Shown: piece after piece, positions 9,827 to 41,785 of the stretch
Numbering within the stretch: the first letter of the stretch is position 1
How the letters are laid out: each line of letters starts with the position of its first letter
Assembly: GCA_032718475.1 (NCBI GenBank)
Contig: JAUCBJ010002501.1
Coordinates: 12,675 to 76,674, forward strand
Length of the DNA stretch: 64,000 nucleotides
From: Nemertoderma westbladi
Lineage: Eukaryota > Animalia > Xenacoelomorpha
Direction of reading: 5' to 3'
Made by a program: the position numbers and the translations under genes
Notes under the pieces: generated by a model
Databases searched by the model: none
Told to the model about the DNA's origin: nothing
Seen by the model: only the letters and a program-made list of their open reading frames with translations

Positions 9827-12524
9827 AATTCGCTAGCAACAGCAAGGAACTACTACAGACATTTCCACCAGAAGAACGGGCCTCCCCTACCCTAGACTTA
9901 GATGTAGAGCAGCTCCCAGTAATGAAAACATTGGGACTACGTTGGCGAATGCAAGAAGATGAGTTCTACTTCACAGTTGCCTTTATCGATAATGTGCCAG
10001 CAAAAACACGACGCCAATGCCTTTCGAAAATGCACAAGGTCTTCGACCCATTTGGATATGTTGCGCCAGTAATTATGAGGGCTAAGTTCTTGCTTAAGAA
10101 AACACTTGGCTTTTAGATTTAGATTGGGATGATACTATTCCCCAATTTCTGTTTGAGGCCTGGAGTAAGTGGGAAAGGGACCTTAAACATATAGAACAAT
10201 TAACTATTCCCAGAACATACTTTCCTCACTTGCAAACAACCGAACAACTTCAACTTCATGTCTTTGTTGACGCTTGTGATAATGGGATGGGTGCAACGGC
10301 CTATTTTAGACGAGAGTTGAAGGGTATATTTTCAGTAACCTTTGTTGCTTCAAAATCTCGTATTATGCCTAAACAGGAACTATCAACCCCTAAGGCAGAA
10401 TTGCAAGCTGCTGTGCTGGGAACTGAACTTGCTGAGATTATCACAGCTGAACTTACTCTCAAGGTAGAACAATATTATTGGACTGATGCTACCATAGTAT
10501 TACAATACCTGCATAACCGAAAACATAAACTCTCTGTGTTTATAACAAACCGGGTGACTCGAATATTAAAACGATCACTCCTATATCAATGGCGTCATAT
10601 AGCTGGTACCATTAATCCAGCTGATCTGGCCTGTCGTGGCTCAACAGCAGAAGAATTAGTCAATTCTTCCATATGGTGGAAAGGTCCAGATTTCTTGTGG
10701 GAGACAGAAGATGAGTGGCCTCATGTACTGCGAGATCTAAATCTCCCCAAGGGAGCGGAGATAGTTCCCGATAGAGTATACCCCCCCAAATCTAGGTTGA
10801 TTTCAGGAGAAACCAATACAATAATAAATGTTGAAGATGATCCTACCCCAATTCCCAAAGGTTCAAGTAAAGAGATTCAATTTCCAAACTTAGACAAAGG
10901 ATTGCATCCTTGGTTGAAAAGACTTCTGAGCAGTCAGCAAAGTCTTCGTGCCTCGATTCGGGATATTTGCTACATTCGCCGCATGGCACATTGGTATTGT
11001 TGGCGACAAAAGAATCCCAATACGACCGAGAAACCTCTTAGATTTTTTTGTCCATTAACACTAGAAGAACTAAGGACCAGTTTACAAATGAGACTTCGCC
11101 TCTCACAAAGAATAGCAGATCCAGAACTTTTTTTGAAACATCAACATAATAACCCTATCCCCCCTCAGCGTGTTGCCACAATCATGTCAAATGGGATTAT
11201 TCGAGTTCAAACACGCCTAACAATGGCTCCAGTGTCCTATGACACTATACATCCTATCATGTTGCGCGAACCACTCCTCTTGGAACAATTATTTTATGAC
11301 ACTCACCTTGAACTTAATCACTCAGGAAGAGACCATATCTTGAGTCATTTGAGACAACACTATTTTCTAGTTTCACCCTGGAACTATCTACGGAATGTTA
11401 TGCGCAATTGTCTTCACTGCCGGAGATACAACTCACCACTGATGAAGCAACAGATGGGAGATCTACCCAACGTTCGGATGGCGGCATATGAGCCAGCATT
11501 TACCAATTGTGGAGTGGATATGTTTGGCCCGATATTAGTTAAGCGCACCAGAACTACTGTCAAACGATGGGGCTTATTGGCGGTATGTATGACTACAAGG
11601 GCGATCCATCTGGACGTTTTGTATCAAGCTAACATGGGTTTGTTTTTGTCCGCATTGTCCAGATTGATTGCACGGCGCGGACAACCACATCATATCACCT
11701 CTGATAATGGAGGAAACTTCGTAGCAGCCGAGAAAGAGCTTCGTAAGAATATCAATGAGTGGAATATGCAATCGCTACACGAGCTTCTTGATAATCATCA
11801 AATAAACCTCATAGACTGGTACTTTACTCCACCCCACGCTCCTTGGTATGGGGGAACTTATGAAAGGCTGGTACAGAGTGTCAAACAAGCTTTCTACAAA
11901 CTGTTGCCCGAGGATGAGACTTACACGTATTTGGATGATGAGGCGTTGCGCACATTGTTGGCTCAGATCGAATTAGTTTTGAACAACCGACCATTAACAC
12001 GTATTTCGCAATCTTCTGAATCAGCTGAAGCTCTCACTCCAGCACATTTCCTCTTCTCTAAACCAGCCATTACGATACCAATATCCGAAATGGAGGATAA
12101 TGATCTTCATTCCCGACGCACCTGGAAAGTTCTTCAACTCCTGACTCAACGATTCTGGAACAATTGGTTGATTGACTATTTACCTTCTCAACGCCTAAGA
12201 TCGAAGTGGTTTTGCCAACGACCAAATCTAAATATTGGTGATATCGTCTTAATTCATGACCCTGTACGGCCACGGCGGGATTGGCTTACAGCTACTGTCT
12301 TAGAACCTAACTACAGTGGCGATGGCTTAGTCAGAAGCGCTAAGTTGAAGACGCAGAATGGGAGTATTCTCGAAAGACCGATACAGAAATTATGCCTCCT
12401 TGAACAAGACTCAGAGAAGACAGGTATATATGGTCAATTTCAGCCTCTTCAACATAATCAGCCATGGATCCTTAGTAATATTACAAATACCCAACGGAAA
12501 TCTGTTGACAAACATAAACCGTAA
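9823..12524 (+). pseudogene. BEL/Pao RT thumb, RNase H and integrase (frameshift near 10110)
   Basis: KFASN, KTLGLRW, FDPFG; LHVFVDAC, PKAELQAA, WTDATIVL, NPADLACRG; HHCC zinc finger; GVDMFGP, SDNGGNF, GGTYERLV; C-terminal RPIQKLCLL. Confidence 0.93.
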
Positions 12525-14653: not shown

Positions 14654-17020
14654 GGACATGGTCATTGAACTTGAAATTGGAAGAAAATACCAGTCCCGGG
14701 TGTTTGTGAGTCTCACCACACGGAAGGGCCTCACCATTTAGATGTAGTGACACTGTCTGGTAGGGGATGGAACCATACATAGTCATTACAATGGTTTTCT
14801 CTGGGTTAAAAGTTACGAGCCATTTAGTAGCCCAAGTGTGTAGTTCATGAAGTTCGTGGTTAAGAAAGTGAGCGCGCACAACAGGATGACTGATTCTAGA
14901 TGAAAGAGATGTATCGTCAGCAAACAGTGAACAGTTTGCCGACAATACATCAACAAGGTCATTTATGTAAATAATAAATAAGATGGGACCGAGCACACTT
15001 CCCTGGGGTACGCCAGTGAGCACCGCCAGAAACAGTGAGCATGTCCCATCTAGTACTACACGCTGCCAACGCCCTGATAAATAACATTGGAACCATGCCA
15101 ATAAACGACCGCGGATTCCCATTCTATATGATTTTTCAAGGAGACCTGCGTGCCATACCCTGTCAAAGGCTTTTGTGACATCACAGAATATTACTTGTGT
15201 GACGTCGCCTTCGTCCCAGGCCTGGCACCAGGAGTCGTATAGGAAGAGAAGTTGGTTTTGGCAACTATCGCCGGGAATAAATCCTGATTGTCGTTTCGAT
15301 ATTTTATGCCATAGGAAATTCCAGATATGCTTTCTGACAACAGTTTCAAAAAGCTTAGAAAGGTTATTTAATAAAGAAATTGGGCGATAGTTGCCAGAAT
15401 TATAAAATTCTCCCTTTTTAAAAATTGGAGTAATATTAGAATACTTCCAGGATTGTGGAAAAATAGAAATGTTAAGTAACGCATTAAGTAAAATAGTTAA
15501 ACCAACTATTAAAGAGCCGGATAATGATTTAATAACGCTGTTACTTATTCCATCGATACCAGGAGATCCATTCGTATTTAAGGATGAAATACCTGAACCT
15601 ACGTCCTCTTCTGAAATCTGTATGTGCTCTAGGACTGCTTCTTCAGGGACGCACTGAACAGTCGCGGGGTCGGGGTGTACTGTAGTGAAGTCGGGGGTAA
15701 AGATTGTGGTATGGGATGTACCGCTGCAGGCTCCACGAGATATACCACCGATGGTACAGTCTGGGGTATGGGGTGTGCCGCCGGTGGTACAGTCTGTGGT
15801 ATGGGATGAAGCACTGGGGGCACTACAGGATGTACCACCGATGGTATAGTCTGGGGTATGGGGTGCACTGCTGGAGGTACAATCGGAGGTGTGGGATGTA
15901 CTACCGGTGGTACAGTATGGGGTGCACTGCTGGAGGTACAATCGGAGGTGTGGGATGTACTACCGGTGGTACAGTCTGGGGTATGGGGTGCACTGCTGGA
16001 GGTACAGTCGGAGGTGTGGGATGTACTACCGGTGGTACAGTCTGGAGTATGGGGTGCACTGCTGGAGGTACAATCGGAGGTGTGGGATGTACTACCTGTG
16101 GTACAGTCAGGGGTATGGGGTGCACTGCTGGAGGTACAATCGGAGGTGTGGGATGTACTACCGGTGGTACAGTCTGGGGTATGGGGTGCACTGCTGGAGG
16201 TACAATCGGAAGTGTGGGATGTACTACCGGTGGTACAGTCTGGAGTATGGGGTGCACTTCTGGAGGTACAATCGGAGGTGTGGGATCTACTACCAGTGGT
16301 ACAGTCGGGGGTATGTGGTGAAGCACTGGAGGTACTACAGAAAGTACCACCGGTGGTACAGGCTGGTGTGTGGGATGTACTAGCGGTGGTGCTGTCTGAG
16401 GTGTGGATTGTACTGGGGTCGTCGGTAATAAACCTGGTAAAGTGGAATTAATGACAAATCTGTTATTTAGAACTTGGGCATTGTCAAAGGCTTCATACAC
16501 CGCTGTATCACCATCAAATAAGAACGGGATGGATAATAATTTGTTTTTCCCCAGTACCGACTTTACTATTGAAAACTATTTCTTAGAGTCTAAGTTGCTG
16601 GAACTTTTGGTTGATAAATACAATTCACTAGAATATGAAGCCTTAGCTAAGCGAACTTTTTGAGTGACAAAATTTCGATATTTTCTGAATTTGACCCATT
16701 GATTTGAGTTGTTGGGTGTCCCTTTGGCTCGTTTGTGTAGCCTTTCCCTGCGCCTGAACAGTGAGCGCAACTCATTATTTATCCACTTAGGGTCGCTGGA
16801 TCTGGTTTTTATTTTGTGGCTGGGAATAAATCTATTCGTACCTTCAAGTAAAGTCTCTGTGAGAAAATTAACACCTTCAACAGGGTCATCGGCATGTGCA
16901 CCAAAGTAGCTACTAAGACATTTGCTATTTAGGAATTGTCTGAATTCTCTCCAGTTCACTTTGTCATAATCCCATACGGTACGAATGAAAAGGGGTGGCG
17001 GTTTAATATCAACGTGAGAC
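14654..17020 (-). mobile_element. 5'-truncated CR1/L2-type LINE ORF2 (linker and RT), host of the BEL insertion
   Basis: WDYDKVNW, PKWINNEL, SPGIDGI, NYRPISLL, DVTKAFDRVWH, GVPQGSVLGP and LFADD in ORFs 16576-17043, 15901-16500 and 14613-15941. Confidence 0.92.
15700..16420 (-). repeat. 66-bp (2x33-bp) coding minisatellite within LINE ORF2
   Basis: Encodes (VVHPTPPIVPPAVHPIPQTVPP)n. A 7-nt deletion near 15917 shifts the frame. Confidence 0.9.
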
Positions 17021-17023
17021 AGA

Positions 17024-17982
17024 CTTGCACCATTCTTGTTCATAATTGTTGTTGACTATGTTCTACGCATGTCCTTAGATCATCATAATGATGATGGGGT
17101 GATGATAACTCCACCTACTGGTTCCAGAAGTCGAGGAAATCCTGCCAAGTACCTAACTGATCTAGACTTTGCTGATGACTTAGGGGTACTCTCAGAATCA
17201 CTAGAGGGAGCCCAATGGCTCCTCAGCTCATTAGAACATGCTGCTTCTAGTGTTGGTCTTTTTATTAACTCCAGAAAGACCAAAATTTTGACAGTTAACT
17301 TTGAAAGTCCTCAGCAAGTCTCTGATCGGATGAGCATAAGCTCAAAAGATGGTATGCTTGAGCATGTGGATGACTTCTGTTACCTGGGATCATGGATCCG
17401 GAAGTCAGGTGAGGACGTTCGAATACGTAAGGGAAAGGCATTGGCAGCCTTTAATAGGCTTTCCAGGATTTGGAAGTCACCGAGAATTAATCGGAAACTT
17501 GAGGTCCGATTATTTAGAGCAGCAGTAGTTCCAGTACTCCGCTATGGGATTCCATGCTGGGCTCTAACTGCTCAGGACACCAAATCTCTGGATGGCACAT
17601 TCACAAGAATGCTACGCCGGGTTCATTGTGTCAAGTACAATGCACACATCTCCAACGAGACACTATATAACATTGGAGGTATCTCATTGCTTCCCCCAAG
17701 CTTGACACTAGAACAAAATCGCCTCCGCTTTGCAGGACATTGCTTTCGCCGTGAGGACCAGCCAGTGCATAATCTTGTACTTTGGCAGCCCCATGGAGTG
17801 AATAAGCATGGTGGACAGCCCATGACTTTCTTGAGACGCATCTTAAAGGACACTGGCCTTGAAGATGCGGATAATCTAGCAAATGTCATGGGTGATAGGG
17901 AGTTGTGGCGGTGCAATTTTGTCGATAAGCCGGCACAGCATTCTTAAAAATGCAGCTGCAATGCAGCATGCCGATCCTAGTA
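17024..17982 (+). mobile_element. RTE-clade LINE 3' fragment (RT C-terminal half and short 3' UTR)
   Basis: LAPFLFIIVVDY, LDFADDL, DFCYLGS, RLRFAGHCFRR. Its tail ...gcagctgcaatgcagcatgccgatcctagtag recurs at ~1495-1560, 2481-2536, 18945-19007, 29550 and 31915. Confidence 0.9.
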
Positions 17983-18288
17983 GATACTAATTGGTACTAC
18001 AATTTAGAATTTGTCAATTTGTACAACACAAATACATTTCTGTTTAGATTGGCGGTCATGTAGATTGTCGAACTATTAGCTTGTTGCTTTTGAGAATTTA
18101 AAGAAAGTGTTCAATGTTAGTTAACTTTAGTAACTGTTTTTCACTCGTCTATTGAACAAGAAGATTATTAGTTATATTAATTAGGGCTTATTTGACAGGT
18201 TTGGTACATTTTAGTGGGAAGTTTTGTAAACTTATTTGCACTGTCTCATTTCATTTCAGTCCGGATTCCACTGGCTGCAAATACGAAT

Positions 18289-18665
18289 ATATGCGTATGG
18301 TGTATGCGTATGGTGTATGCATATGGTGTATGCGTATGGTGTATGCGTATGGTGTATGCGTATGGTGTATGCGTATGTTGTATGCGTATGGTGTATGCGT
18401 ATGGTGTATGCATATGGTGTATGCGTATGGTGTATGCGTATGGTGTATGGGTATGGTGTATGCGTATGGTGTATGCGTATGGTGTATGCGTATGGTGCAT
18501 GCGTATGGTGTATGCGTATGGTGTATGCGTACGGTGTATGCGTATGGCGTATGCGTATGGTGTATGCGTAGGTATGGTGTATGCGTAGGTATGGTTTATG
18601 CGTATGGTGTATGCGTATGGTGTATGCGTAGGTATGGTGTATGCGTATGGTGTATGCGTATGGTG
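18289..18665. repeat. 13-bp minisatellite (TATGCGTATGGTG)n
   Basis: Reverse complement of the 1841-2176 array, with a different copy number. Confidence 0.95.
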
Positions 18666-19281
18666 AAAATTATAGGCCTCAGATGACTAGAGAGGACCTA
18701 AATATGATTTATGGCTTATGGCTTATGAAATGGCTTATGATTAAGCTATTATAAAGTTAGTATATTTATATTATTTATATTATATTTAATATAATAAGTA
18801 TAAAGAAACTTAAGAAGTTAAGCTTCCGGTTTATTAATCATGTATTATAATTAGTAATACACTATTGAATGTTTAAAAATGTATTATTATTTCAGATCTT
18901 AGTCACAAGGTACAGGTAATTATTATTATTACTGGCCTTAGGTACTACTAGGATCGGCATGCTGCATTGCAGCTGCATTTTTAAGAATGCTGTTCCGGCT
19001 TGTCGACATACTTTTAGGCATTAGGTACACGGTTAATGGAGCCTCTTATAGATACCCTAACTGACGAAATAGTAAAATACGTATGAGAGACTAATGCACT
19101 AATATAATGCTTAAAATATCGAATTTTAAATTATGTACTAAATAAAACGAAATGTTATTATCATATTTAATAGAGAGCAAAACAAAAACAACATGGGTGT
19201 TACAAATCCATTATACGTAATGTAATGCACAGTACATTGTTGCAACAGTCTCCAATTTCCACCAATGTTGTAGTCCATTAA

Positions 19282-20703
19282 CCCTATTACCACTGGGGTG
19301 TTTTGACCATTAGCACCACTGGGGGGGGGGGGCCGATTCGGCCCACCCACTATATTTTTGTAGTCGTCCAATGAAATCCTACAAAATTTGGGCTGTTGGT
19401 GAAACAACTATAGATGAACACTACCAAACCTTAAAAAATTAAAATTTCATAAGCAGGGACTCATAATTTTGATGAAAAATAAAAGTAGTCCCAGGACAAA
19501 ATTACAAAATTTTTCGTTTTCTAAAAACTAATAGTGTGGCAGTGTTGGCTAGATTTAGTAGGTTTTTCAAGACGCTGAATCGAATGTGATTATATTCCAC
19601 TTCCAAAAATTGAAGTGGATGCTATTTTTCGTGCACCTAAGAAGTGGGCGTGGCACTTCAAATTTTGAAAAATTAGATATTCAGAAAAAGCCCCTAATTT
19701 TTTTATTTCAACGCATCTTTATGGGTTTTCTGGGCCGCTGAATCGATTGAAAGTAATATAGAAGCCTGAAGACTGAGTGGTTCGCCATTTTTGGTGCACC
19801 AAAATTAGGGCGTGGCACTTCAAATTTTGAAAAATACGAGATTCGGAAAATAAACCAAAATTGAAATTTTAACGAATTTATATAGGTTTTCCAGACCCCT
19901 GAATCGATTGAAAGTAATATAGAAGCCTGAAGACTTAGAAGTTAGCCATTTTTTGAAATCAAAACTTTAGTGTTTTTTCCGAATAAAGTAATTTTGAAAA
20001 TTTGAAGTGCCACGCCCTAATTTTGGTGCACCGAAAATTACGTACACAAAGGATTTGAGGCTTCTATATTACTTTCAATCGATTCAGCGCTCCAGAAAAC
20101 CTATAAAATTAATTTGAAATCAAAACTTTAGTGAATTTTCCGAATCTCGTATTTTTCAAAATTTGAAGTGCCACGCCCTAATTTTGATGCACCAAAAATG
20201 GCGAACCACTAAGTCTTCAGGCTTCTATATTACTTTCAATCGATTCAGCGCTCCAGAAAACCTATAAAAATGCTTTGCAAATCAATACTTTAGTGTATTT
20301 TCCGAATCTCGTATTTTTCAAAATTTGAAGTGCCACGCCCTAATTTTGGTGCACCAAAAATAGCGAACCACTACACTTACATACTTGTATAGAGCATTAG
20401 AGTGATCCAAACCAATAAAAATAAATAAAAATAGCCCAAACATAAATAATTACTAAATCACGAATGACTTTGTAAAATTCGAAAATTTCAAAAAATTTGG
20501 TGCTGGAGACCAAATTTTGAGGTGGCACCCACATCGAAATGTAGAAATCCAATTGCAACGGCGTTTTTTGCAAAAGATGCGGCATTAAATTTGGCTAATT
20601 CTCACAAAAAATTGGGCCGGTACGTAATGTCGTTGCATAGTTACAGCAACTAAAAACTAGGAAGGGGCCGATTCGGCCCCCCCCCCCCCCAGTGGTAATA
20701 GGG
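19282..20703. mobile_element. piggyBac-like non-autonomous DNA transposon
   Basis: TTAA TSD (19278-81, 20704-07), TIR CCCTATTACCACTGGGG/CCCCAGTGGTAATAGGG and internal inverted ~120-bp repeats. The empty site ctcTTAAtgg is at 1228-1237. Confidence 0.93.
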
Positions 20704-23060
20704 TTAAGAGTGGGTCGCTTTCGACACTGCTGAGATGCTGTGACAGAAGAAAACTGAAGATAAAAAAGTGAATTTATCATTCCGGTATTGAATTAGCTGT
20801 ATATTATTCTACACTTAACACGCATGATATGGGTATCTAGACTACATGTATTAAATTATGTGTTTATGTTTTTGTGTAACAATTTTCCGTATACATACAT
20901 ATAATTGAATTGCACCGCAAAATATTGGGTTATATATAAAATAATATTATAGCAGTACGTAGCTCCTTCACCATGCTATTTAATTCCTATTAGGATATTC
21001 AACGGTGCACAGACGATGGCTTGCCGGGAAGGCCCATTACGCAAACCACCTCCTTTACACATATACATACAGTATATAACAAGATTACGTATCGTATTTA
21101 AACAATCCGTATATACTGTAGTACGTCTAACTACAACTACTGTAAATTACATACCTAAAATAAATGTATAAAACAAAGAACCGGTATATCGTATAAATGA
21201 TATATATCATCTATATTACTATGCATGCACACAAGGGTATAAGTTGATTAATCTTATATGTAGATATAAAGCCGTTCTAATAATAAAACCCTTTCTAATA
21301 AGAGTTACTGTATACTGGATTGAGAAAAGGGTTTAAGAAAATTATTGTAATAGATGGGATAATGCTGGAAAATTACCTGAGATATGTAAGATATGGATAA
21401 TGCTATAAAATAAGCTAAGATATATAAGTTTAAAGGATGACTAATTTATAACTAGTGTACAAAATTTTATATGAGTTACTTATTATTAGTTTTGATTACT
21501 TGTTTTTAGATATCGTTTGAGACAATTTAAAGATAGATATTCTAGGTCGGTGCCTTACAGAGATTGGGAGGCTGTTCCAGACCTCGGGTGCTTGGACCCT
21601 GATGGATTGCCTGGCGACCAATAGCCTAGTCCGGTGCGTTACACAGTTGTTGTTAATAGCGGTGCGGGTACAATGGTCGTGAGTCGTAGATGAGGGTGTG
21701 TTGTTAGATGTCAGTGTTACCCCTGCTTTGTACTATCCGTTGAGCCCTCTGTTGTAGTCTGTGCAGTGATTTAATTGTAGTATTTCGGTTGTCAGTATCT
21801 GTCTGTTGTTTCCGCCTTCGTCTGGAGTGTCGATGTATTGGCGTTTGTCTTGGTGGCCCTGTATTGTCGTTGTTTGTATTATATTTTTGTGCCCAGACAG
21901 CATTGCAGTATTGTAAGTAGCGGCCTATCATCGTGTTATACAGTATTGTGAGAATCTGTGGGTTGATGGAGTTTTTTATTTTGTTAATAAAACCGACATT
22001 CCAGCTTATTTTGGTCCGTATATATTCGAAATGGTGTTTCCAAGTCGAAATGATGCGTTGTTTATTGTCACAGTTGTGTCAGTGTCTAGTTTCAGATTTC
22101 TGTTGTTAGTATGGAAGATAATGTAAGTCGGAAGAATGGAAGTCGGTTTAGTTGGAACCATTTAGTCAGTTTATATAAATCGTCGTTTCGATGTGAGATA
22201 AGTTGATGAATGTCCGTACCTGATTTTAGAATGTTCATGTCGTCATCAAACTTTGGTGGTTCACTGTGAACTCACACTTGTCCAGTGAAAGGAGGGTTAA
22301 TAATGCGTGTTGGGTGCACCGTTTTGTTCTAAATCCGAATTGTGCTGGTGTTAGTATAATTAAATAAATTAATTAATTAGCATAATTAAATAGTCTGTTA
22401 GTTCGGTCTGTACAATCGAGTTCAATTCGAGTATTTTTGAGAAGTATGTAAGTACTGATATTGGTCTGTAATTTTGTACGAATGTCGGATTTACTGATTT
22501 GAAAATAGGTGTGATACGCGCAATTTTCATTTGTTTTGGTACTGAGCCGCTACTGAGAGATATATTCACAATGTTTGAGAGCGGTTCAGCTATTAGTGTG
22601 ATGGTCGGGTACACAGCAGTGGCTGGCAATCAAAGTGGTGGACAATATTTTCGTTCACTGCAGATATATCTCTATTGATATATCCTGCCACCATTGGTTG
22701 ATGGCCAAATGACATTGAATCTGTGATTAATGCTGAGAGAACCACATTCTCGTAAGTAATTGTCTCTATCCTCTCTTTGACCCCCGTCGCAGTGCATAAA
22801 GATCTCAATTATCAAGCCTCTGATAGATACAGCAATGAATGACTCTCTGTCTGTGCCAGTTTTAATTCGTTCACAGTGCTGGTATATATTTTCCTTCCTT
22901 CATGAAAATGGCAGTGCCACCTTTGCCTCTCACTGTCATTTTCGGTATGGAAATGCCTTCAGTGATAGTGAAAAGGCAGTAGTAAATATTCAATGTAAAT
23001 AGGACAATATGATAATGCTCTCCATAGCGAAAAGTATCAACCGGCCCTATTGGGACTTGA

Positions 23061-23104
23061 ACCCGGTACCTAGGTTTCAAACTTCTGGTTATCATCAGCC
23101 GGGT
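23061..23104 (-). ncRNA. Type I hammerhead ribozyme, retrozyme copy 1
   Basis: rc reads ACCCGG CUGAUGA U AAC-CAGAA-GUU U GAAA CCUAGG UA CCGGGU. Confidence 0.82.
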
Positions 23105-23428
23105 GAGTGTACTGAGCTACCAGACCGGATGAATATTTCGCTGTGGAGTGGGAGATCATATTTAGGCCAACTAATCACTCAAAGGAAAGTACAAGTTCGT
23201 TATTCCCGTGCCTTGCCAGAAATGGCAACCATGCCTCAAAGAATAACTATTATACAGTGTTGTAGAAACCACTGTAACCCTGTACGCCTGGCCCAGGCTG
23301 TTATTTAATAATAATAAGTGAATTGTTGTGGGGTGAGTGACGCGGTGTATTAAATATACAATGTAAATAGGACAATATGATAATGCTCTCCATAGCGAAA
23401 AATATCAACCGGCCCTATTGGTGCTCGA

Positions 23429-23472
23429 ACCCGGTACCTAGGTTTCAAACTTCTGGTTATCATCAGCCGGGT
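23429..23472 (-). ncRNA. Type I hammerhead ribozyme, retrozyme copy 2
   Basis: Identical core, 368 nt from copy 1. Confidence 0.82.
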
Positions 23473-23643
23473 GAGTGTACTGAGCTACCAGACCAGATGA
23501 ATATTTCACTGTGGAGTGGGAGATCATATTTAGGCCAACTAATCACTCAAAGGAAAGTACAAGTTCGTTATTCCCGTGCTCTGCTAGAAATGGCAACCAT
23601 GCCTCAAAGATCTCCCACTCCACAGCGAAATATTCATCCAGTC

Positions 23644-23713
23644 TGGTAGCTCAGTACACTCACCCGGCTGATGATAACCAGAAGTTTGAAACCTAGGTAC
23701 CGGGTTCGAGCCC
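23644..23713 (+). promoter_or_regulatory. tRNA-type internal Pol III promoter flanking the hammerhead
   Basis: A-box-like TGGTAGCTCAGT (23644-55) and B-box GGTTCGAGCCC (23703-13). Also present on the minus strand in the other two copies. Confidence 0.7.
23662..23705 (+). ncRNA. Type I hammerhead ribozyme, inverted retrozyme copy 3
   Basis: Helix I ACCCGG/CCGGGU, CUGAUGA 23668-74, helix II AAC/GUU, GAAA 23688-91, palindromic helix III ACCUAGGU, GUA cleavage triplet 23697-99. Confidence 0.85.
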
Positions 23714-24439
23714 CAATAGGGCCGGTTGATATTTTTCGCTATAGAGAGCATTATCATATTGCCCTATTTACATTGTATATTTAATACACCGCGTCACTCA
23801 CCCCACAACAATTCACTTATTATTAAAAGGCAGTAGTTGCAGCCCTTATGTATTATCTCGTCCCGCATCCCTAACCAGTCTTCCTGGATGATAAAGATGT
23901 CTGGTCTGTTCATTGTGAGAAAGTTATTAATGTATTGTTTATTCCTGGTATATCCTTGACAGTTATAGGTAGCAATACTGATTTTGGTTATCATCCTATC
24001 CATTGGGTGTCTCATATCATCAGACTAGGATAATTTATCAACAGTAGTATTAACAATTTATCAAGAGTCTATCAAGCCTGTATATAGACTGACTCAAGGT
24101 ATTATTGGATTAATCAAGTTGGATCTTGACTATAATCAGTTTATTTGAGATATATTATCTTTGTTGGATTTGGATAAAATTAGAAATACTTCTCGTTCTT
24201 AAACCACATGGAGCAACATACAATGGCTAATACAAGATCTGCTGTCATGTAAATTGTGGAAAGAAAGAGAAAATATATATTACTCATTTCATATGCTATA
24301 GCCAAAACGTTTAATATTGTACATGGTACCATTGTATTCAACACAATGATGGTTGCTCTTTCATACATTTAATAACACATGCCTACACTACTAACTAATG
24401 TACAGGTTAACAGTATATTATGACGATGGGCTTACTGAT

Positions 24440-25702
24440 TTAATATAGAGTACTCCCTCTAGCTCTAATGATAACTAGATAGCTAATGATTATGATGAGA
24501 AATGGAACGATGGGAAGACTAATCAATGAGGCAGCTGATTGGAAACCAAAATAGTCATCTAACATTCCTCCAAAGAGCGCACCTATGATGTTTCCACAAG
24601 CCAAAGATAACCTAACAATTTGTTGAACCAATGTCCGTATATCGACGTTGTCTGTTCTGTCCTTTAATGCAATGCGAGTTAGAGTTTCTGTACCGCAACT
24701 AATAAACAATCCTACACCAACTCCGAGAAAACAGCATCCAAATATTGACAATGGCAGACTCAATGGTAACCCTAGCAACTGTGTTGGTCCAATCAATTGC
24801 ATGGAAATTATTATTGAAACATATCCTATGATGGTGGGATACACTGGGTTTAGAAGTGAACATTTCTGCATTACAAAACTCATTGCAAACACGGTTGCAG
24901 CAGATGAAACAACATTCCCCACCATGATCAATCCGATGTTCATTTGTGGCATTTCGTAAACATCATGGACATACACAGCGTAGTTTGCAGCATAATATAG
25001 ATATGTTGTTTCGCCAACTATTGTCAAAATCGATAGTGTACTAGTACAAAAGTTGCTAAGCAATGAAATCAAGTCGGGTCTTGGTTCGGTAGATGACGAT
25101 CTGTCAAGTATATTTTCTGGAGACTCGAAACAACAATATAAATTTACAACCAATATGGTAATTCCTGGAATTAAAAATGCTCCTCTAAATCCAATGGTTG
25201 TGTATAAGAATGACCCAAGCACAGGTGCAGACGTCAAGCCTAATCCAAGCATCACTTGTGAGATTCCAACAACCATAGTTCGATTGTGAGGATATAGATC
25301 CATTAGTAAGCTGAAACTAAAGATGTAACTGATGTTTCCTCCAATAGCATCTAAAGTTCTAAAGATAAAGCATGTACAAATATGAACAGTATTGTTGGTG
25401 ATATCCTCCACAAATCCGAATGCTGAAAGAGAAAGTGCTCCAAGGATCCCAAACACACCATAGGAGAGGCGACTTCCGAGATTTATAATGGAGTTTCCAC
25501 ATGTGATGAATATGATAAGTCGTGCAGCTGGGTATATAGCTAGCACACTACCAGTCATGGTCTTAGACCAGTTACGACCTTCGACAACAATTGGGAAAAA
25601 GGAGTCTAAAAGTGCAAAGCACAACCCTGGAATAACCTGGGAGAAAAAGAGAAATCCTGTGAGTATTATTTTCCTGCGGTTGATATCCATTATAGTTATC
25701 AT
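24440..25702 (-). CDS. MFS transporter, SLC18B1-like, single coding exon, copy 1
   Basis: Uninterrupted ~420-aa ORF with about 12 hydrophobic segments and SLC18B1-like motifs LLDSFFP, RTLDAIG, GLGLTSAPVLGSFLYTTIGF, GALFGGMLDDYFGF. First ATG at 25702; an upstream exon is not excluded. Confidence 0.85.
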   Translation of the reverse strand: MITIMDINRRKIILTGFLFFSQVIPGLCFALLDSFFPIVVEGRNWSKTMTGSVLAIYPAARLIIFITCGNSIINLGSRLSYGVFGILGALSLSAFGFVEDITNNTVHICTCFIFRTLDAIGGNISYIFSFSLLMDLYPHNRTMVVGISQVMLGLGLTSAPVLGSFLYTTIGFRGAFLIPGITILVVNLYCCFESPENILDRSSSTEPRPDLISLLSNFCTSTLSILTIVGETTYLYYAANYAVYVHDVYEMPQMNIGLIMVGNVVSSAATVFAMSFVMQKCSLLNPVYPTIIGYVSIIISMQLIGPTQLLGLPLSLPLSIFGCCFLGVGVGLFISCGTETLTRIALKDRTDNVDIRTLVQQIVRLSLACGNIIGALFGGMLDDYFGFQSAASLISLPIVPFLIIIISYLVIIRARGSTLY

Positions 25703-26077
25703 TGATGGACCACCATATAAAAAACACAAGAAATAAAATATAGCACAATATATAACTATATAATACCAGAAGACTTATAAATAACCTACTTTACTGTACT
25801 TGTTTACATTTATTTTACAATTATTTTAGGGTTTTCTTTTGGCTAGAGTTATTGGGATGACAGCAGAGTGAAGTTCTCCACTGAGAAATAGTGATAGTGA
25901 AGAATGGTCCTACACACAGTGATGTCCACTATACCTTTCATGTAAGTATATAGTAAATGTTTAGAATGATCTTGGTAGGTAATATTTTTGTCAACAACAT
26001 TCTGATGGAAACCCAACTGGCATCTTTGGGGTTTTTCCTAAAAATTACCATATTCTACATCGGATCATGACTTATTA

Positions 26078-26268
26078 GGCCGCGTTCACATTACCGAGTC
26101 AAAGTCAAAAGACAAAAATGTAAAACACATCACATGAAATTTAATTTTTTCTAGAATGCCCTTATGTATTATATTAGGCCTATATAATGTATTATTATTT
26201 ATTATTGCAAGCTAGCTATAATTATTTTCTTTTGACTTTGACTGTGACTTGGTAGTGTGAACGCGGCC
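26078..26268. mobile_element. PIF/Harbinger-type MITE
   Basis: TIR GGCCGCGTTCACA/TGTGAACGCGGCC with a TTA TSD, ~375 bp upstream of the MFS ATG. Confidence 0.8.
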
Positions 26269-27149
26269 TTATGCAAAAACAATACGATTTTCGAATCTCA
26301 AGTTCGAAAAAAGTGTTCCAGAACTTTTTTACTCACCATTATTCCAATGGAAACAGCCACGGTCTCAAGTTATAAAGTGTGCTAATCTTAAAGACTATGA
26401 ACTTTTAAGGTGAAAGAATTTAAAAGAGAAATTCAATAACACAATTGCATAAACTCATAATAAAATCTAATATATTTAAAAACCATTCATCAATTGCAAT
26501 AGATGTATTAAATTCAACTATCTGCCAAATACATTCAAAATACATAATTACATATTCGTCTCCAGCAAAAATAAGTGAGGTGTGACTGGATTTAAAATTG
26601 ACAAAAAAGTGTGTCCTATAGCGTTACATCATAGTATTCTCCATAGAGATTACTATGATGTAAGTTAAACAGTTATGGAAATAAATATGTACAATTTAAT
26701 ATATTATAGGGAAGAAATCGGATAAAATGTCTTAACCATTCCTTGAGAGGATTTCTTAATGGCAATTTATATAAAACCCTCAATGATCCTCAACTGGGCA
26801 TCAGTGTGATTATTGATGACAATCGTATTACCATAATACAAAATATTTACTATATACTCCCATGCAAGGTTCAGTGAATAAAAGTTCGTTCAATAAATAT
26901 GCCGGATTATCAGTGAGGTTTCATGCAAGATCCATGCATGATTAGTATTAATTCATTCAGTCATATGTGGAATCAACTTCAGGGTATCAATAATGAATTT
27001 ATATGGGGATATAAAAATTCATTTGAAGTGTCATGGGTGACACACTTGCTTTTATTATCTTTATTATGGTGGTTGATTATTTACTGCGAATTTCTCAACA
27101 TAATACAGATGGTGTGGAAATACAAACAGACTGTGGTAGTAGCTGCCAG

Positions 27150-27392
27150 TAGTGCGAGAAAAGCGCCAATATATTTATTGGACCTAGACTTTGCTGATGA
27201 TGATCTGTGTTTAAAGTCAGCAAAATTGGATGGTGCAAAAGCAGCATTCATTGTCAATGTATCTATAAATGCTATGAATTCCAAAATTTTGATTCTAAAC
27301 TTGGATTCCCCCCAGCAAGTCTTTGACTGTTAGAGTCTTCATTAAGATTTTGGTTGAAGTTATTGATCATGTAGTAGACTTCAGCTACCTGT
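27150..27392 (+). pseudogene. Old RTE RT fragment (duplicated at ~42670-42900)
   Basis: YLLDLDFADDD...NLDSPQQV resembles the 17036 ORF. Confidence 0.65.
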
Positions 27393-28384
27393 GCTGTGAG
27401 AAATAAAGTTTGTATTAAATATATTTACTTTACAAAGTCAACATATTTTTGTAAACATTAGCGTCTTGGGGCTTTATAACAGCCCTTTTTAGTTTCTTAT
27501 TTTAGAAAAACTACATCCCTTGAAGATTAAAACACCTATATGGGTCTAAGGGTCACAAATACAAAAACTGAAAATATTTTGTCGAGATTTTTTTGTTACT
27601 AGATGTACGGAAAATGCTTTATTTGCAGTAAGTGCAGGTAGCATTGAAATTTACAAGTAGTGAAAAGCATAAGCTAGACTCATCGCCAAAACCGACCACA
27701 ACTACCACACTGCTATGAAGGCTCAGGATATATGTACCAATTAATATGGTTTGCGTTTAAGTTAAAAAGTCAAATAATTCGGTCGTTGATAGATCGTGAT
27801 CCACACCAGCTTCCAAGGTGGGGGTGGGACCATCACAGGTCAAATGCGAGGTGACATTTAGTAACTGCGACGACAGAGGTTTAGCCAAACCTCTGTCGGT
27901 CATAGCTTGATGAGTGCAACACAACTAGAGTAAGGCAACGATTCTGAACATTTTTTTAAATTCCATGCACTTCACTATTTTTGAGAAGATGAAAAATGTT
28001 GTTAATATATGTGGCAGTGAAAGCGAAAAGGTACCTTAAGGTGAAATTGAGGTTTTTGAGTTAGATATTGCATGTGATTGGCCAACATCTCAGCTCTCTA
28101 ATGAGCTATAAATCATCCTGATTGGATGAGTACATCAAGAGTTATTAGAAATTAAGTATTGGCAAGACAACCAGATGGAAAATATACTATTATGAGTAAA
28201 TCGCGTTTAAAATTTTAATAGTATTTTAATAGTCGTAGGGATTACTTACAAAATATCTTGAAAGTGAGTTTGCTAAATCGGAGTGGGTCTGTTGTTGTGT
28301 TGTGATGTTGAGGCTTGAGGGGCAAAATGTGTAATAGGAATGTATATTAGCAAACTAATGAACAACGATGCTGCCTTTTTTTTC

Positions 28385-29190
28385 TAGCCTGGGACTTCGA
28401 GCAGCACGTGATCAACTAAGCTGGATGGTTATCTAAGGCAGGGACTTCGAGCACCACGTGAACAACTATGCTGGGTTTTTATCTAGTCTGGGACTCCGAG
28501 CAGCACATGAACAACTAGGGTAGCTAGTTATCTAGTTTGAGACTTCGAGCAGTACGTGAATAACTAAGGTAGCTAGTTATCTAGTATGGGACTTCGAGCA
28601 GCACGTGAACAACAAAGCTAGATAATTATCTAGTTTGAGACTTTGAGCAGCATGCGAACAACTAAGGTAGCTTAGTCTGGGACTTCAAGCAGCGCGGGAA
28701 CAAGTAAGCTAACTATGATTATCTATTTTGGGACTTCGAGCAGCACGTGAACAACAAAGCTAGCTAGTTATCTAGTTTGAGACTTCGAGCAGCACATGAA
28801 CAACTAAGGTAACTATGGTTGTCTAATTTGGGACTTCGAGCAGCACGTAAACAACTAAGGTAGCTAGTTATCTAGTTTGGGACTTCGAGCAGCACGTGAA
28901 CAACAAAGCTAGCTAGTTATCTAGTTTGAGACTTCGAGCAGCACGTGAACAATAAAGGTAGCTAGTTATAGTAGACTAGTCTGGGACTTCGAGCAGCACG
29001 TGAACAACAAAGGTAGCTAGTTATCTAGTCTGGGACTTCGAGCAGGACGTGCACAAATATGCTACGTTTTTATCTAGTTTGGGACTTCGAGCAGCACGTA
29101 AACAACAAAGCTATCTAGTTATCTTGTTTGAGACTTCGAGCAGCACGTGAAAAACTGAGGTAGCTAGTTATCTGGTCTGGGACTTCGAGC
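28385..29190. repeat. ~50-bp tandem repeat (GGGACTTCGAGCAGCACGTGAACAAC...TAGCTAGTTATCTAGT)
   Basis: Visible head-to-tail array; the last unit is interrupted by an RTE fragment. Confidence 0.9.
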
Positions 29191-29550: not shown

Positions 29551-31909
29551 AGCACGTGAACAACAAACCTCAAAAACCCGTATACGTTCAGAATTATCAA
29601 TCGAAACACAACAATTTTTTATTTGACATTTTTTACTTGTACTTTTCGTCCTGGGGTCAAAAATAGCACCAAAAATGGTGGTTGTATCGCTAAAAATATT
29701 TTTAACATTTTTTATCGTGATCAGCGACCTCAAAAACCCGCATACATTCAGAATTATCAATCGAAACACACCATTTTTTAATTTGACATTTTTTTACTTG
29801 TACTTTTCGTCTTGTGGGTCCCAAATAGCACCAAAAATGATGGTTGCATTACCAGAAAATATTTTTAAGATGTTTTATCGTGTTTAATGACCTCGAAAAC
29901 CCTTATACCATCAAAATTATAATTTTTGAGCCAAGATCTAAAAATTTATAAAATGACTGACAACACTTAACAGATAAACAGACAAACAGACGGACAGACA
30001 GACCGATTGACAAACAAACATATTGAAAATAACTGGAAGATAGTTTTCTATTGGAATAATAAGGCATATAAATTAATTTATAAGAGTAAATCTACATAGA
30101 ACAACATAATATCTATCGGGAATGAGATTTAAATTTCAAAACTTCTGACTACTCTCAATCAAAGCTGATTATCTCCAAAACTAAGCTAGCTGTTAACATA
30201 CCGTTAACAGATTTGGATTCCTCATTAAAAACTGCATATATCACATTGAAAATAAAAAAATTGAAAATTTTGACTAGAAAATTTAATTTTTCTTTAAGTG
30301 CGATTTTCTCAAAACGTACAGTTTCTCAGTAATATGGCTTCGTTCGCATTCATCATGTAATTTTGGGTTGACAACACTATAGGCAGAGAGTTTTGCCATC
30401 ATAGTAATCTTTACACGGGTTCACATATGAAGATGTAGTTTGGCAAATGTCGCAATAGGTTAGCTTTGAAGAGATCAGGGAATTATCTATTCAAAACAAA
30501 GTTAAAAGTTATTACCAATTTTGGATAACCCAAAAACGATAAAAATCAAAAAATTCTAAAAATCTTCAGGCTAGGGTTCATCGCCCATGTTATGGGGTTA
30601 TAGAGAATTATGGTGCATCGCCGGCTTTACTTATTTAAAGGTAGGGGTCAGTCTTTCCAATCAATTACTTTATATTGCGTCATAAGTCAATAGCGTATTG
30701 CTATTGTTACTTAGTTGTTATGTCGCATTATAATAATCCATGGCCGTTCACTATGGATTATTATATTACCAGTAAAGTGTTGCGGTACGACGCCATCCTT
30801 TGTTATTACAAGGACTATTAAATCCTTCAAAGCCAAGGTAAATTAAATTATAATAATTCCGTACATAATAATATTTATTAGTATACGTAGCTACAAGTCT
30901 TTATTATAGTATTATTAAGTCTAGTATTGTTGTAAAGAAAGAAATCTCTCAGTTTTGAATTTCAGAAATGCCCCTCAAAATTAATAATATACTATTTCAA
31001 TAAAATATTAATTTGATATTGATGGACCTATTTTATTTCTTTATTATTACAGAATAACCTTAACACCTTAATAAAGAAATCCAACCCTAAAGACAGTAGT
31101 TGCGATGTTGTAACCTCAAACTCTGCTAAGTATTCAATAGAGGATCATATCAAATGAATGAATAACACCAGTTCAGTTCCGTATCTTACATATTATATTT
31201 AGTTACCAAAAATATTTAATAGTAATTTATATCAAATGTAATTACATAAATGATGTAAATTCTATGATGATTCATATTAATATAGATTTGAAGATATAAC
31301 TTACTACTACTACTACTACTAAACACTACTGACATAAATGTATGCAAATGTCAAGTCATATCATATTGTGAATAAAATTGCGAAATTGTTTTCGTAATAA
31401 CAATTTTCATAAAATTGTCCTTCATATTTGCGAAAAAATATAGTGTTACTGAAATAATATTTACCGTATTATATTTTACAATTAATTTATGTTTGCCAAA
31501 TGCTAATAATTGTGTTATTAGTACAAAATAAAGTGGCTAACACAAAAGGTTTTGTATGGATATCCCACTCAAATTATCTTAGGAAACAAACTGGTCAACC
31601 ATGTGTTAGGGGTATAAAATTAAACTCCCTATCTCATGAACGTAAATATCCTTCATGCTTTTATGATGGTTTAGCATTTGCTCATCAACATCAAAGGAGA
31701 TCCTGTTAGAACTTAACTGTATTTCAGTAATAATTGTTTTGGTAGTTGTTCTCCTATAACAACATCATACAGCACAAAGCAATTAATTTAATTCTTGTAA
31801 GGAGATTACAAATATTATTATCCCGCACAATTCCTGTTTCAAACGATTTATAACCAACTTAATTATCACTGGCATTGGATTTTATATTGTGACACAAATG
31901 CTCTACGAC

Positions 31910-32165
31910 TACTACTATCGGCATGCTGCATTGCAGCTGCATTATATATATTACATTTATATTAGGAATGCTGTGTCGGGATGTCGACAAAATTGCGCAG
32001 CCGAAACTCCCTATCCGCATCATCAATACCATTCATTGTCTGTTAAGAGGCGTCTGGGAGAAAGTCATGAGCTGTCCGGGCTTGCGAAAGTCATGGGGGG
32101 GAGGGAGTTGTGGCGGTGCAACTTTGTTGATAAGCCGGCATATCATTCTTAATTCACGCTGCATT
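31910..32165. mobile_element. Two diverged RTE 3' ends in inverted arrangement (duplicated at ~45020-45275)
   Basis: Reverse-complement tail atcggcatgctgcattgcagctgcat followed by a forward ...RELWRCNFVDKPA. Confidence 0.7.
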
Positions 32166-32302
32166 GGGCCTGTCAATTGTGGATTGCATGGTGGTGACAA
32201 AATGTGGGACTGTGCTGTGCAAATCTTTAGTTTGTTTAGCACTGTTAGAATTTATAAGTTTGTCTTACAGTGTTTCATAAGATAATTAATTAATGTAGAA
32301 AG

Positions 32303-33812
32303 TACGGAGCCCCTAAAGGGACATTTAAAAAAATTATTTTTTTCGCTAACTCGTACGAACGACATACTAAGTCGTGCGAACGACTTACTAAGTCGTGCGA
32401 ACGACATACTAAGTCATGTGAAAGACATACTAAGTCGTGCAAACGACTTAACTCACTCGTGCGTAAGACTTAGTAACTCGTGCTTTAACTACTTACTTAC
32501 TTACTACTTACTTAACTACGACTTACTAACTTTACTTTGATAGGCTAAATAATACTGGTAATAAAAGTACAACCTTTTTAGCGGAATTTTCAATTCAATC
32601 TACAGCATTGTTGTTGATGGCATTATTGGTTGAAAATTTTATTATCGATGTCTGAACGTGCTCTGTTAATATTGACGTCCTTTAACTTAGGCTGACAATA
32701 CAACCGACATATTGTAGCAAATTATAATATATTTAACACATTAATTTTATTGTAACTAAGTCACTGAATTGCTGTATTATCTACGGTTGGGGCTGTTAGA
32801 TAAGCTGATTATAGTGTCAGGTGTAGTTGTGTCTCACTATTGTATCAAACAGCTGTAGTCGAAATCTCAGGTTTTGGGGGGAGGTGAGATAGGTCCTACT
32901 ATTTATAGTATTTTACAATATTGTGACTCCACCACAATATTCGATTTAAATAAAGTACGTACCCGTATTTCACTTTCAGGCTCTTGTTTCAAATTTCACT
33001 CATTCGCTTACACTCGTTCTTTATAAAATTAATTCGAATAAGTAATGCTTAACATCCCTAATGAAACCAGTGGGTGCATGGATGGATATACCCGGAAAAT
33101 GATTTGGTTGAACGTGTATAACACCAACAATGACAGTAAAGTTATCGGGGGCTACTTCCTGGAAGCGATAACTGAGAACAAGGGTGCTCCGCGGATTGTT
33201 CTTGGGGATTTTGGAACAGAAAATGTTAGCATTCGAGTCTTTCAGAAGTTCATCCGTAGAGATCACACTGACAATATGCAACAGACCTGTTACATCGATG
33301 GCGCGAGCACAGCTTAGGATAATTTCATTATTTAGTTTTAAAGCAGATCAAATTAGTCCGTATGATAGGCCTAAGTAAAAGTACGTCGATATTAACAGAG
33401 CGCGTTCAGCCATTGATAATAATATTTTCATCAATAATGCCATCAACAACAATGCTGTAGATTGAATTGAAAATCCCACTAAAAAGGTTGTACTTTTATT
33501 ACCAGTATTATTTAGCCAATCAAAGTAAAGTTAGTAAGTTGTTTGCAACGACTTAGTAAGTCGTTCGCAACGACTTAGTAAGTCGTTCGCACGACTTAGT
33601 ATGTCGTTTGCACGAGTAAGTTAAGTCGTTCGCACGACTTAGTAAGTCGTTCGCACGACTTAGTATGTCGTTCTTACAGGGTTAGTTAAGTCGTTCTCAC
33701 GACTTAGTATGTCATTCGCACAACTTAGTAAGGCGTTCGCACGACATACTAAGTCGTTTGCACCAGTTAGCGAAAAAAAAAAAAATTTCAATGTCCCTTT
33801 AGGTGCTCCGTA
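32303..33812 (+). mobile_element. IS3EU-like non-autonomous DNA transposon, copy 1
   Basis: Termini TACGGAGC.CCTAAAGGGACAT, long inverted repeats with 21-bp subrepeats, imperfect 6-bp TSD AGAAAG/AGTAAG and an internal integrase-like remnant GCMDGYTRKMIWL...PRIVLGDFGTEN. Confidence 0.75.
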
Positions 33813-38949: not shown

Positions 38950-39958
38950 GTTCAGTTATTATTAGTTTTAATTAAATATCAAACGGGCGTATAAAACTCC
39001 AACGTTGTTTTATTGTTCGAATTCCCCCAGTTATACTATTGGTTGATGGCCAAATGACATTGAATCTGTGATTAAAATGCTGAGAGAGAACCACATTCTC
39101 ATAACTAATTGTCTCTATCCTCTCTTTGACCCCTGTCGCAGTGCATATAGATCTCAATTATATATAGTGTTTCATGGAAGAAGCCTCTGATAGATACAGC
39201 AATGAATGACTCTCTGTCTGTGCCAGTTTTAATTCGTTCACAGTGCTGGTATATATTTTCCTTCTTTCATGAAAATGGCTGTGCCACCTTTGCCTCTCAC
39301 TGTCATTTTAGGTATGGACAATGGTCATGCCTTCAGTGATAGTGAAAAGGCAGTAGTTGTAGCCCTTATGCATTATCTCGTCCCGCATCCCTAGCCAGTC
39401 TTCCTGGATGATAAAGATGTCTGGTCTGTTCATTGTGAGAAAGTTATTAATGTATTGTTTATTCCTGGTATATCCTTGACAGTTATAGGTAGCAATACTG
39501 ATTTTGGTTATCCATCCTATCCATTGGGTGTCTCATATCATCAGACTAGGATAATTTATCAACAGTAGTATTAACAATTTATCAAGAGTCTATCAAGCCT
39601 GTCTTTAGACTGACTCAAGGTATTATTGGATTAATCAAGTTGGATCTTGACTATAATCAGTTTATTTGAGATATATTATCTTTGTTGGATTTGGATAAAA
39701 TTAGAAATACTTCTCGTTCTTAAACCACATGGAGCAACATAAAATGGCTAATACAAGATTTGCCGTCATGTAAATTGTGGAAAGAAAAAGAAAATAAATA
39801 TTACTCATTTCATATGCTATAGCCAAAACGTTTAATATTGTACATGGTACCATTGTATTCAACACAATGATGGTTGCTCTTTCATACATTTAATAACATG
39901 CCTACACTACTAACTAATGTACAGGTTAACAGTATATTATGACGATGGGCTTACTGAT

Positions 39959-41221: not shown

Positions 41222-41596
41222 TGATGGACCACCATATAAAAAACACAAGAAATAAAATATAGCACAATATATAACTATATAATACCAGAAGACTTATAAA
41301 TAACCTACTTTACTGTACTTGTTTACATTTATTTTACAATTATTTTAGGGTTTTCTTTTGGCTAGAGTTATTGGGATGACATCAGAGTGAAGTTCCCCAC
41401 TGCGAAATAGTGATAGTGAAGAATGGTCCTACACACAGTGATGTACACTATACCTTTCATGTAAGTATATAGCAAATGTTTAGAATGATCTTGGTAGGTA
41501 ATATTTTTGTCAACAACATTCTGATAGAAACCCAACTGGCATCTTTGGGGTTTTTCCTAAAAATTACCATATTCTACATCGGATCATTACTTATTA

Positions 41597-41785
41597 GACC
41601 GCGTTCAAATTACAGAGTCAAAGTCAAAAGACAAATGTAAAACGCATCACATGAAATTTAACTTTTTCTAGAATGCCCTTACGTATTATATTAGGCCTAT
41701 ATAATCTATTATTATTTATTATTGCTAGCTAGCTATAATTATTTTCTTTTGACTTTGACTGTGACTTGGTAGTGTGAACGCGGCC
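41597..41785. mobile_element. PIF/Harbinger-type MITE, duplicated copy
   Basis: Same element as 26078-26268 with a mutated left TIR. Confidence 0.75.

Follow-up and report, generated by a model that had tools for sequence, protein, structure and literature searches.

How can a retroelement be transcribed and multiplied when the ribozyme it carries is predicted to cut its own promoter in two? This question is raised by a 64,000-nucleotide stretch of the Nemertoderma westbladi genome (assembly GCA_032718475.1, contig JAUCBJ010002501.1, positions 12,675 to 76,674 of the forward strand), here called the window. It contains an 841-bp insertion (22984-23824) with three copies of a repeat in which a hammerhead-like sequence lies between motifs resembling the A and B boxes of an RNA polymerase III (Pol III) promoter. 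The element is probably, by a modest degree of confidence, a high-copy, non-coding retrozyme without long terminal repeats (non-LTR) and with a unit of 368 nt, which was inserted by a Penelope-like reverse transcriptase (RT) and possesses a predicted hammerhead between the A and B boxes of a likely Pol III promoter. Directly observed are its anatomy, a target-site duplication (TSD) with an empty site, the size of its family, the pattern of variation in that family and the Penelope-type shape of the insertion.

The insertion is bounded by identical 13-bp repeats. A duplicate of the flank contains this sequence a single time, at 39345, so that 22984-23824 represents a true insertion, and the 13-bp TSD with an empty site which had been claimed in an earlier note on this DNA is borne out. 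The flank 23825-28012 differs from 39345-43477 by 67 mismatches in 4189 columns (1.6%). Copies 2 and 1 follow each other on the minus strand and make up 1.7 tandem units of 368 nt. Together with the inverted partial copy 3, they agree with the arrangement described in that note. Both outer ends of the insertion are sense 3' ends. The unit is non-coding, as no open reading frame (ORF) of 150 amino acids crosses the 368-bp repeat. Metazoan non-LTR retrozymes are non-coding tandem units of 150-450 bp with less than 50% GC and a type I hammerhead with short palindromic helix III. They have a TSD longer than 4 bp and no LTR, occur as monomers and partial tandems and likely depend on a Penelope partner (PMC7229834; bioRxiv 10.64898/2026.07.22.740005). 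The element has these features in common with them: its unit is 368 bp long with 41.8% GC, it has the 13-bp TSD with its empty site, and the type I hammerhead is present in two consecutive units (copies 2 and 1), at scores below the Rfam cut-off. On unit size, GC content, tandem hammerheads, TSD and high-copy family, the earlier designation as a retrozyme-like element appears sound.

A partial tandem, an inverted 5'-truncated copy and a one-sided tail of 30-40 bp are hallmarks of Penelope-like elements (PLEs; PMC8557442), and all three are observed in this insertion. Animal retrozymes have also been argued to be non-autonomous Penelope derivatives (bioRxiv 10.64898/2026.07.22.740005), and the element is therefore read as a Penelope-moved retrozyme. 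With the hammerheads of PLE pseudo-LTRs it shares the palindromic helix III for dimer cleavage and the AT-rich targets (PMC4209133, PMC8557442). PLEs differ in possessing an ORF, and their minimal hammerheads have a long helix II (PMC4209133). The A-box 9-mer of the element was found once in the searched part of the supplement of PMC8557442, outside its hammerhead table.

The same order of motifs was found in every copy: the A box TAGCTCAGT, 6 nt, a type I hammerhead (CUGAUGA...GAAA...GUA) and the B box. The conserved core, a helix I of 6 bp and a short palindromic helix III are those of a canonical type I hammerhead. GUA is a permitted hammerhead cut triplet, and the predicted cut after 23699 falls between the two boxes, as had been proposed. 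The B box overlaps helix I, with its opening three letters closing the helix. The claimed succession of A box, hammerhead and B box holds for all three motifs in 3/3 copies, with the qualification that in the window the A box is without the GG found in a complete tRNA A box, and the B box of copy 2 has lost its last C. A T5 run and a long stem flanking the ribozyme are further features, absent from the earlier note.

The anatomy is real, repeated and well beyond chance. The hammerhead pattern has 3 matches in the window against 0.18 expected, and the A-box...B-box pattern has 3 against 0.00; for either pattern, 0 of 100 shuffles reached 3. When the monomer was shuffled 20,000 times and both strands were scanned (40,000 strands), the hammerhead descriptor was matched 2 times and the A...B pair 77 times in a loose or 7 times in a strict form. 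Among 174 columns shared by the three copies 10 are variable, and 0/10 fall within the 45-nt hammerhead (P 0.046) or within the 63 nt from the A box through helix I (P 0.010), both regions being picked post hoc. With that post hoc choice, the earlier observation that the core is identical across copies while the flanks differ is confirmed. At gathering score there were 0 Rfam matches on the element, the best hammerhead signal being HH9 at 20 bits against a cut-off of 52 (E 0.04-0.06), and no tRNA was called on the element by the Rfam tRNA model or by ARAGORN. Sub-threshold Rfam matches to MIR807, mir-3432 and mir-788 were set aside, as they reflect inverted repeats only. The features are given in Table 1.

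Table 1. Features of the insertion and its target site, in window coordinates.
Feature	Position	Strand	Remark
Left target-site duplication, 13 bp, AAAAGGCAGTAGT	22971..22983	+	exact repeat
Right target-site duplication, 13 bp, AAAAGGCAGTAGT	23825..23837	+	exact repeat
Empty site, 13 bp of TSD present once, in duplicated flank	39345..39357	+	
Copy 2, complete 368-nt unit	23243..23610	-	41.8% GC
Copy 1, 259 nt	22984..23242	-	continues copy 2 in tandem; 3' end abuts left TSD
Copy 3, 216 nt	23609..23824	+	inverted, 5'-truncated; 3' end abuts right TSD
42-nt extension at one insertion end only (Penelope-type 'tail')	23783..23824	+	length by which copy 3 outruns copy 1
A-box-like motif TAGCTCAGT	23647..23655 (copy 2: 23487-23479; copy 1: 23119-23111)	+	motif; predicted partner of ribozyme core
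Type I hammerhead, copy 3	23662..23705	+	predicted cut after 23699
Copy 3 helix I	23662-67/23700-05	+	6 bp
Copy 3 CUGAUGA	23668-74	+	
Copy 3 helix II	23675-87	+	U.U + 3 bp, 5-nt loop
Copy 3 GAAA	23688-91	+	
Copy 3 helix III	23691-98	+	palindromic
Type I hammerhead, copy 2	23429..23472	-	predicted cut after 23435
Type I hammerhead, copy 1	23061..23104	-	predicted cut after 23067
B box GGTTCGAGCCC	23703..23713 (copy 2: 23431-23421, final C lost; copy 1: 23063-23053)	+	motif
T5 run, possible Pol III terminator, part of flanking stem	23732..23736	+	T5 in copy 2, T4 in copy 1
Imperfect stem enclosing A box, ribozyme and B box	23618..23746	+	~23618-23648 paired with 23710-23746

Part of the stretch was contained in 6 of the 9 sequencing runs listed, and four of these (X1, X3, X4 and X5) were compared with copy 2. 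None of the runs containing it was listed as RNA, a blank that has no bearing on expression. X1, X3 and X4 are DNA runs of one organism from three studies, and X1 may be the source of the window itself. Family contigs numbered 1773 in X1, 1005 in X3 and 139 in X4, many of them with unique flanks, these being numbers of contigs and not of copies. The family is dispersed and high-copy in the three DNA runs, and the joint between the end and the start of the unit is present in each of them. Run X5, from another organism and perhaps of RNA, gave 2 contigs at a depth of 3-4 and was counted as no evidence.

Variation in the family was taken from the best 40 of 51 rows, which lie at 37 places and pass a 3% threshold, contig depth not being allele frequency. 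At 7 of the 37 places copy 2 holds the minority letter; these were set aside and 30 were kept. Among the 30 places, 0 fall in the 45 constrained positions of the A box and ribozyme (P 0.017, with classes drawn post hoc). The 3 listed variants inside the 44-nt ribozyme sit at N7, loop 2 and position 10.1, which are tolerant sites (P 0.004, also post hoc), and the U>A variant at position 10.1 converts U.U to an A-U pair. No change of 3% or more was found in the 9-nt A box among the variants listed, and 3 non-private variable places lie within 5 nt of it.

The edges of the copies were taken from the top 20 of 403 loose ends. They fall into two groups, one at 23473-23478, immediately 3' of the A box, and the other at 23351-23376, with AT-rich neighbours. 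No edge among these 20 lies at the ribozyme cut site; the inserted copies therefore seem to stem from uncut or rejoined RNA. The cluster just 3' of the A box suggests that many copies are pieces of ~110 nt with an intact junction and apparently without an A box. Many contigs contain just a core of 107-113 nt, between 23473-23478 and 23366-23376, amid unrelated flanks. In X3, a group of 14 loose ends has majority letters that form a fuller A box with GG, situated 9 nt further from helix I, with an agreement of only 0.5, which suggests a genuine box as well as a second subfamily. Other contigs rejoin the unit at 23537-23541, which also suggests a second subfamily with a different A-box region. 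An opposite-strand joint, 23425 / 23478, was observed in one contig of each DNA run and represents a fold-back copy elsewhere in the genome.

A cycle of multiplication may be outlined as follows. Transcription by Pol III would begin immediately 5' of the A box and occasionally continue beyond the T5 run; alternatively, a host transcript would cross a tandem copy. Two hammerheads would then pair through the palindromic helix III, cut after GUA and release a 368-nt monomer. Metazoan type I hammerheads with short helix III and a palindromic loop cut as dimers (PMC4209133), and for the element the energy of the palindrome dimer is -11.4 kcal/mol and that of the constrained hammerhead fold -6.5 kcal/mol. 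The monomer would start 3 nt before the B box and end ~45 nt past the A box, so that the order of the boxes would be reversed. Closure by a host ligase would rebuild A box, ribozyme and B box across the seam; RtcB is known to circularise retrozyme monomers in vitro (PMC7229834). The earlier proposal that only circularisation or tandem copying rebuilds the promoter holds in so far as the monomer would have the B box first and the A box last. Its logic is not new, having been stated already for Sm-alpha, in which cleavage misplaces the promoter and tandem copies are needed (PMC6765202). As long as the RNA is closed or uncut, pairing is predicted between the A-box strand and the CUGA core and would keep the ribozyme inactive. 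Priming by the Penelope RT would take place at AT-rich targets, from variable positions 50-125 nt beyond the B box, and reverse transcription would run across the seam. Such copying would yield partial tandems, inverted copies and many short, promoter-less copies stopping before the A box.

Folding predicts pairing of the A-box strand with CUGA and loop 2 at a probability of 0.80-0.91 in copies 1 and 3 and 0.36 in copy 2, and a fragment without the A box is predicted to form helix I at 0.89-0.97. The block duplex by itself is modest, being equalled by 65 of 2000 shuffles. The duplex of the flanking stem beats 2000/2000 shuffles in copies 1 and 2, and in copy 3, 18 of 2000 shuffles were as good.

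Several observations weigh against the reading of the element as a Penelope-moved retrozyme with an active ribozyme and promoter. The hammerhead had been called complete, which is right for the core, helix I and helix III. Helix II should have 4 bp with G10.1-C11.1, a pair described as highly conserved in metazoan type I hammerheads (PMC4209133), and here it has just U.U and 3 bp, with a minority A-U variant. Its pairing probability is 0.04 or less in all fragments folded. The ribozyme region and the monomer fold no better than shuffles (z +0.76 to -1.39), and in the folded tandem transcript neither helix I nor an inter-copy helix III was predicted. The variants at N7 and 10.1 reach the 3% threshold in X4 alone (3 contigs and 1 contig); in X1 and X3 they stay below 1% of depth. 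The variant results also cover the listed rows only, with 11 further rows outside. Many family copies are apparently without the A box, and the summed depth in X1 is 36-64 thousand over the A box against 110-326 thousand over the ribozyme and B box. The T5 run starts 19 nt past the B box. A T run right behind a B box would stop most Pol III transcripts, so that a Pol III transcript would end at ~100 nt unless read through; family copies end beyond the T5 run, and their templates therefore do extend past it. Pairwise differences among the three copies (2.8-4.0%) exceed those between the flank duplicates (1.6%), which is awkward for a single circular template (Fisher P 0.02, 0.18 and 0.03, with 4/13 differing columns being CpG). 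As the copies diverge more than the flanks, a single circle fits no better than a mixed tandem template. Scanning of 14 of the window's 27 long ORFs revealed no Penelope ORF. Intron-bearing tRNA genes can imitate the hammerhead-plus-box pattern. Finally, 8 of 9 predicted Xenopus retrozyme dimers failed to cut in vitro (bioRxiv 10.64898/2026.07.22.740005).

Some of these points would fit an active non-LTR retrozyme of the ordinary kind, transcribed by host read-through, in which the A and B boxes are left over from a captured tRNA or SINE (short interspersed nuclear element) head; this explanation is unlikely. The boxes would then be retained because they pair in the RNA, the A box with the B-box tail and with the core. 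Retrozymes are thought to be promoter-less and dependent on read-through (PMC7761336), and this explanation agrees with the T5 run just past the B box, the A box without GG and the many copies that begin 3' of the A box. The flanking stem, moreover, requires sequence 5' of any Pol III start. Against it, the B box is perfect and the A box has 9 letters, their spacing is tRNA-like and no listed variant falls in them, part of the family has the fuller A box, and Sm-alpha is a precedent for Pol III (PMC6765202).

The nested family pattern (A box, hammerhead, B box) had 0 matches in a scan of metagenomes. The general hammerhead-plus-B-box scan gave at least 120 loci (the best 120 of ~160), and among those listed 88 start with CUGAAGA and 68 have an A box; by inspection these are intron-containing tRNA-Phe-like genes. 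Of 10 metagenome loci submitted to ARAGORN, 4 had a tRNA at the match. In loci L111, L108, L041, L060, L071 and others of L031-L150 the intron follows the anticodon (by inspection; likely archaeal genes), and such genes are a source of false positives in hammerhead searches. A scan of viral sequences gave 30 loci which were chance matches and tRNAs, with no nested hammerhead by inspection.

The abundance of such mimics would suit an explanation in which the element is a tRNA-derived, Penelope-dependent tandem SINE, its hammerhead being inactive or a look-alike derived from an intron-bearing tRNA and its arrays and any circles forming without self-cleavage. The weak helix II and the missing copy edge at the cut site among the top 20 of 403 would suit it as well. 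Among the 120 listed loci, however, just 5 have a 6-bp helix I, none of these five has a palindromic helix III and 0/120 have all three helices, whereas both window matches possess all of these. The variation in the family avoids the core, the palindrome disrupts the anticodon stem, and the element has a low Rfam match to HH9 and none to tRNA. This explanation is considered improbable.

The window contains a fragment of a long interspersed nuclear element (LINE) reverse transcriptase at 17018-17947, with 119 relatives, which we take to be RTE-like; hits in the search with it were mostly unnamed, and some were from animals. That the same RNA element was moved by an L1- or RTE-type LINE, with the inverted copy made by twin priming, is very improbable: a 13-bp TSD starting with TG|AAAA, two outer sense 3' ends and this RT fragment would suit it, but neither junction has a poly(A) or repeat tail, as the fixed 3' tail of a LINE-dependent tRNA SINE would demand, the 3' ends vary among family copies, the inverted and direct parts overlap in sequence and the 42-nt tail is one-sided as in PLEs (PMC8557442).

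The preferred reading, a Penelope-moved retrozyme with the predicted ribozyme between promoter boxes, leaves the relation to tRNA to be considered. The element is colinear with four aligned tRNA-like loci, in standard tRNA position numbering: CUGAUGA corresponds to the anticodon loop, helix II to the intron, helix III and GUA to the 3' anticodon strand and variable loop, and the 3' strand of helix I to the T stem. The register bears out the idea that the ribozyme stands in place of the anticodon/variable arm, and the alignment shows that few changes would separate such a tRNA from a predicted hammerhead. Descent from a prokaryotic tRNA-Phe on the basis of this likeness is not supported; likeness is not evidence of descent because the loci had been preselected by a hammerhead-like pattern. 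The sequence CCCGG before CUGA, common to the element and 46 of 68 tRNA-like loci, is no proof either, since pairing with the T-stem strand forces CCCGG in the element.

It is nevertheless conceivable, though doubtful, that an intron-bearing tRNA gene or a SINE head was converted in place to the hammerhead, with the anticodon loop turning into CUGAUGA and the intron into helix II. Helix III with its cut triplet would derive from the 3' anticodon strand together with the variable loop, and the 3' strand of helix I from the T stem. Promoter and ribozyme would then be one 70-nt module. The A box would act both as a DNA promoter element and as an RNA lock on the core, and therefore only circular or tandem RNA would give transcribable offspring.

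Among known systems, Sm-alpha and Sj-alpha of Schistosoma come close in combining a tRNA-type Pol III promoter motif with a type I hammerhead (PMC6765202, PMC2770079, PMC4918200), a combination predicted for the element from its sequence. In Sm-alpha the hammerhead comes after a full tRNA-Gln-like promoter, and both boxes are on one side of the cut (PMC6765202, PMC2770079, PMC4918200). The element has no tRNA head recognisable by ARAGORN or Rfam; its boxes straddle the predicted ribozyme and the cut would separate A from B. A 2020 review notes that metazoan retrozymes seem to carry no promoter (PMC7761336), the schistosome repeats being the sole tRNA-bearing exception (PMC4918200); here A and B boxes bracket the predicted ribozyme. 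The helix II of the element is weaker than canonical, and retrozyme circles are predicted to leave the ribozyme free, whereas in the element the A-box strand is predicted to block it. Cassandra, Helenus and Ajax, which are TRIMs with Pol III promoters, are likewise non-autonomous and have a small-RNA-derived internal promoter rebuilt from the repeat during reverse transcription. They differ in their LTR mechanism, TSDs of 4-5 bp, primer binding site and lack of a ribozyme (PMC10886601). No case of a hammerhead nested between A and B boxes was found in the full-text literature searched, which included few subscription papers and did not extend to Repbase, Dfam or published retrozyme sequences, so that a precedent may have been overlooked. 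Within that literature, the earlier statement that no family with this nesting has been described stands. What appears to be new is the bracketing of the predicted ribozyme by the boxes; the retrozyme type, the combination of promoter and hammerhead and the requirement for tandem copies were known already.

The surroundings of the insertion are rich in repeats. A local duplication comprises 23812-28012 / 39332-43477 (97% alike) and 30329-33770 / 43476-46877 (94% alike). It carries two uninterrupted 444-codon ORFs of MFS transporters, at 24440-25774 and 39959-41293 on the minus strand, which are SLC18B1-like according to a protein atlas, the clusters there being eukaryotic; a separate search with the MFS protein had no matches. 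The MFS ORF ends 616 bp upstream of the insertion, and read-through on the minus strand would include copies 2 and 1 in sense. Such read-through would also yield, with copy 3, a near-perfect 216-bp hairpin from which double-stranded RNA might arise. ORFs of a BEL/Pao LTR retrotransposon are situated at 5467-12524, with Peptidase_A17, Integrase_H2C2 and DUF5641 in 10098-12524. A duplicated element (220-2876 / 17928-21914, 95-97% alike) has internal 13-nt and 161-nt arrays, and further repeats at 28383-29190, 46645-47534, 50267-50984 and 54047-54750 represent 49-, 21-, 10- and 164-nt tandem arrays.

Should the boxes be relics, or the ribozyme inactive, the element would be simply a further retrozyme or SINE family. 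A 70-nt module with boxes around the cut site makes the question of retrozyme transcription testable by a few point mutants, and with a promoter split by the cut, selection would act directly in favor of circularisation. As it falls in exact register with the anticodon loop, intron site and variable loop, the predicted ribozyme also points to a concrete way in which tRNA could give rise to a hammerhead. If that origin were true, the de novo emergence of a ribozyme from tRNA could be traced in this family, which would also represent a self-transcribing circular-RNA retroelement.

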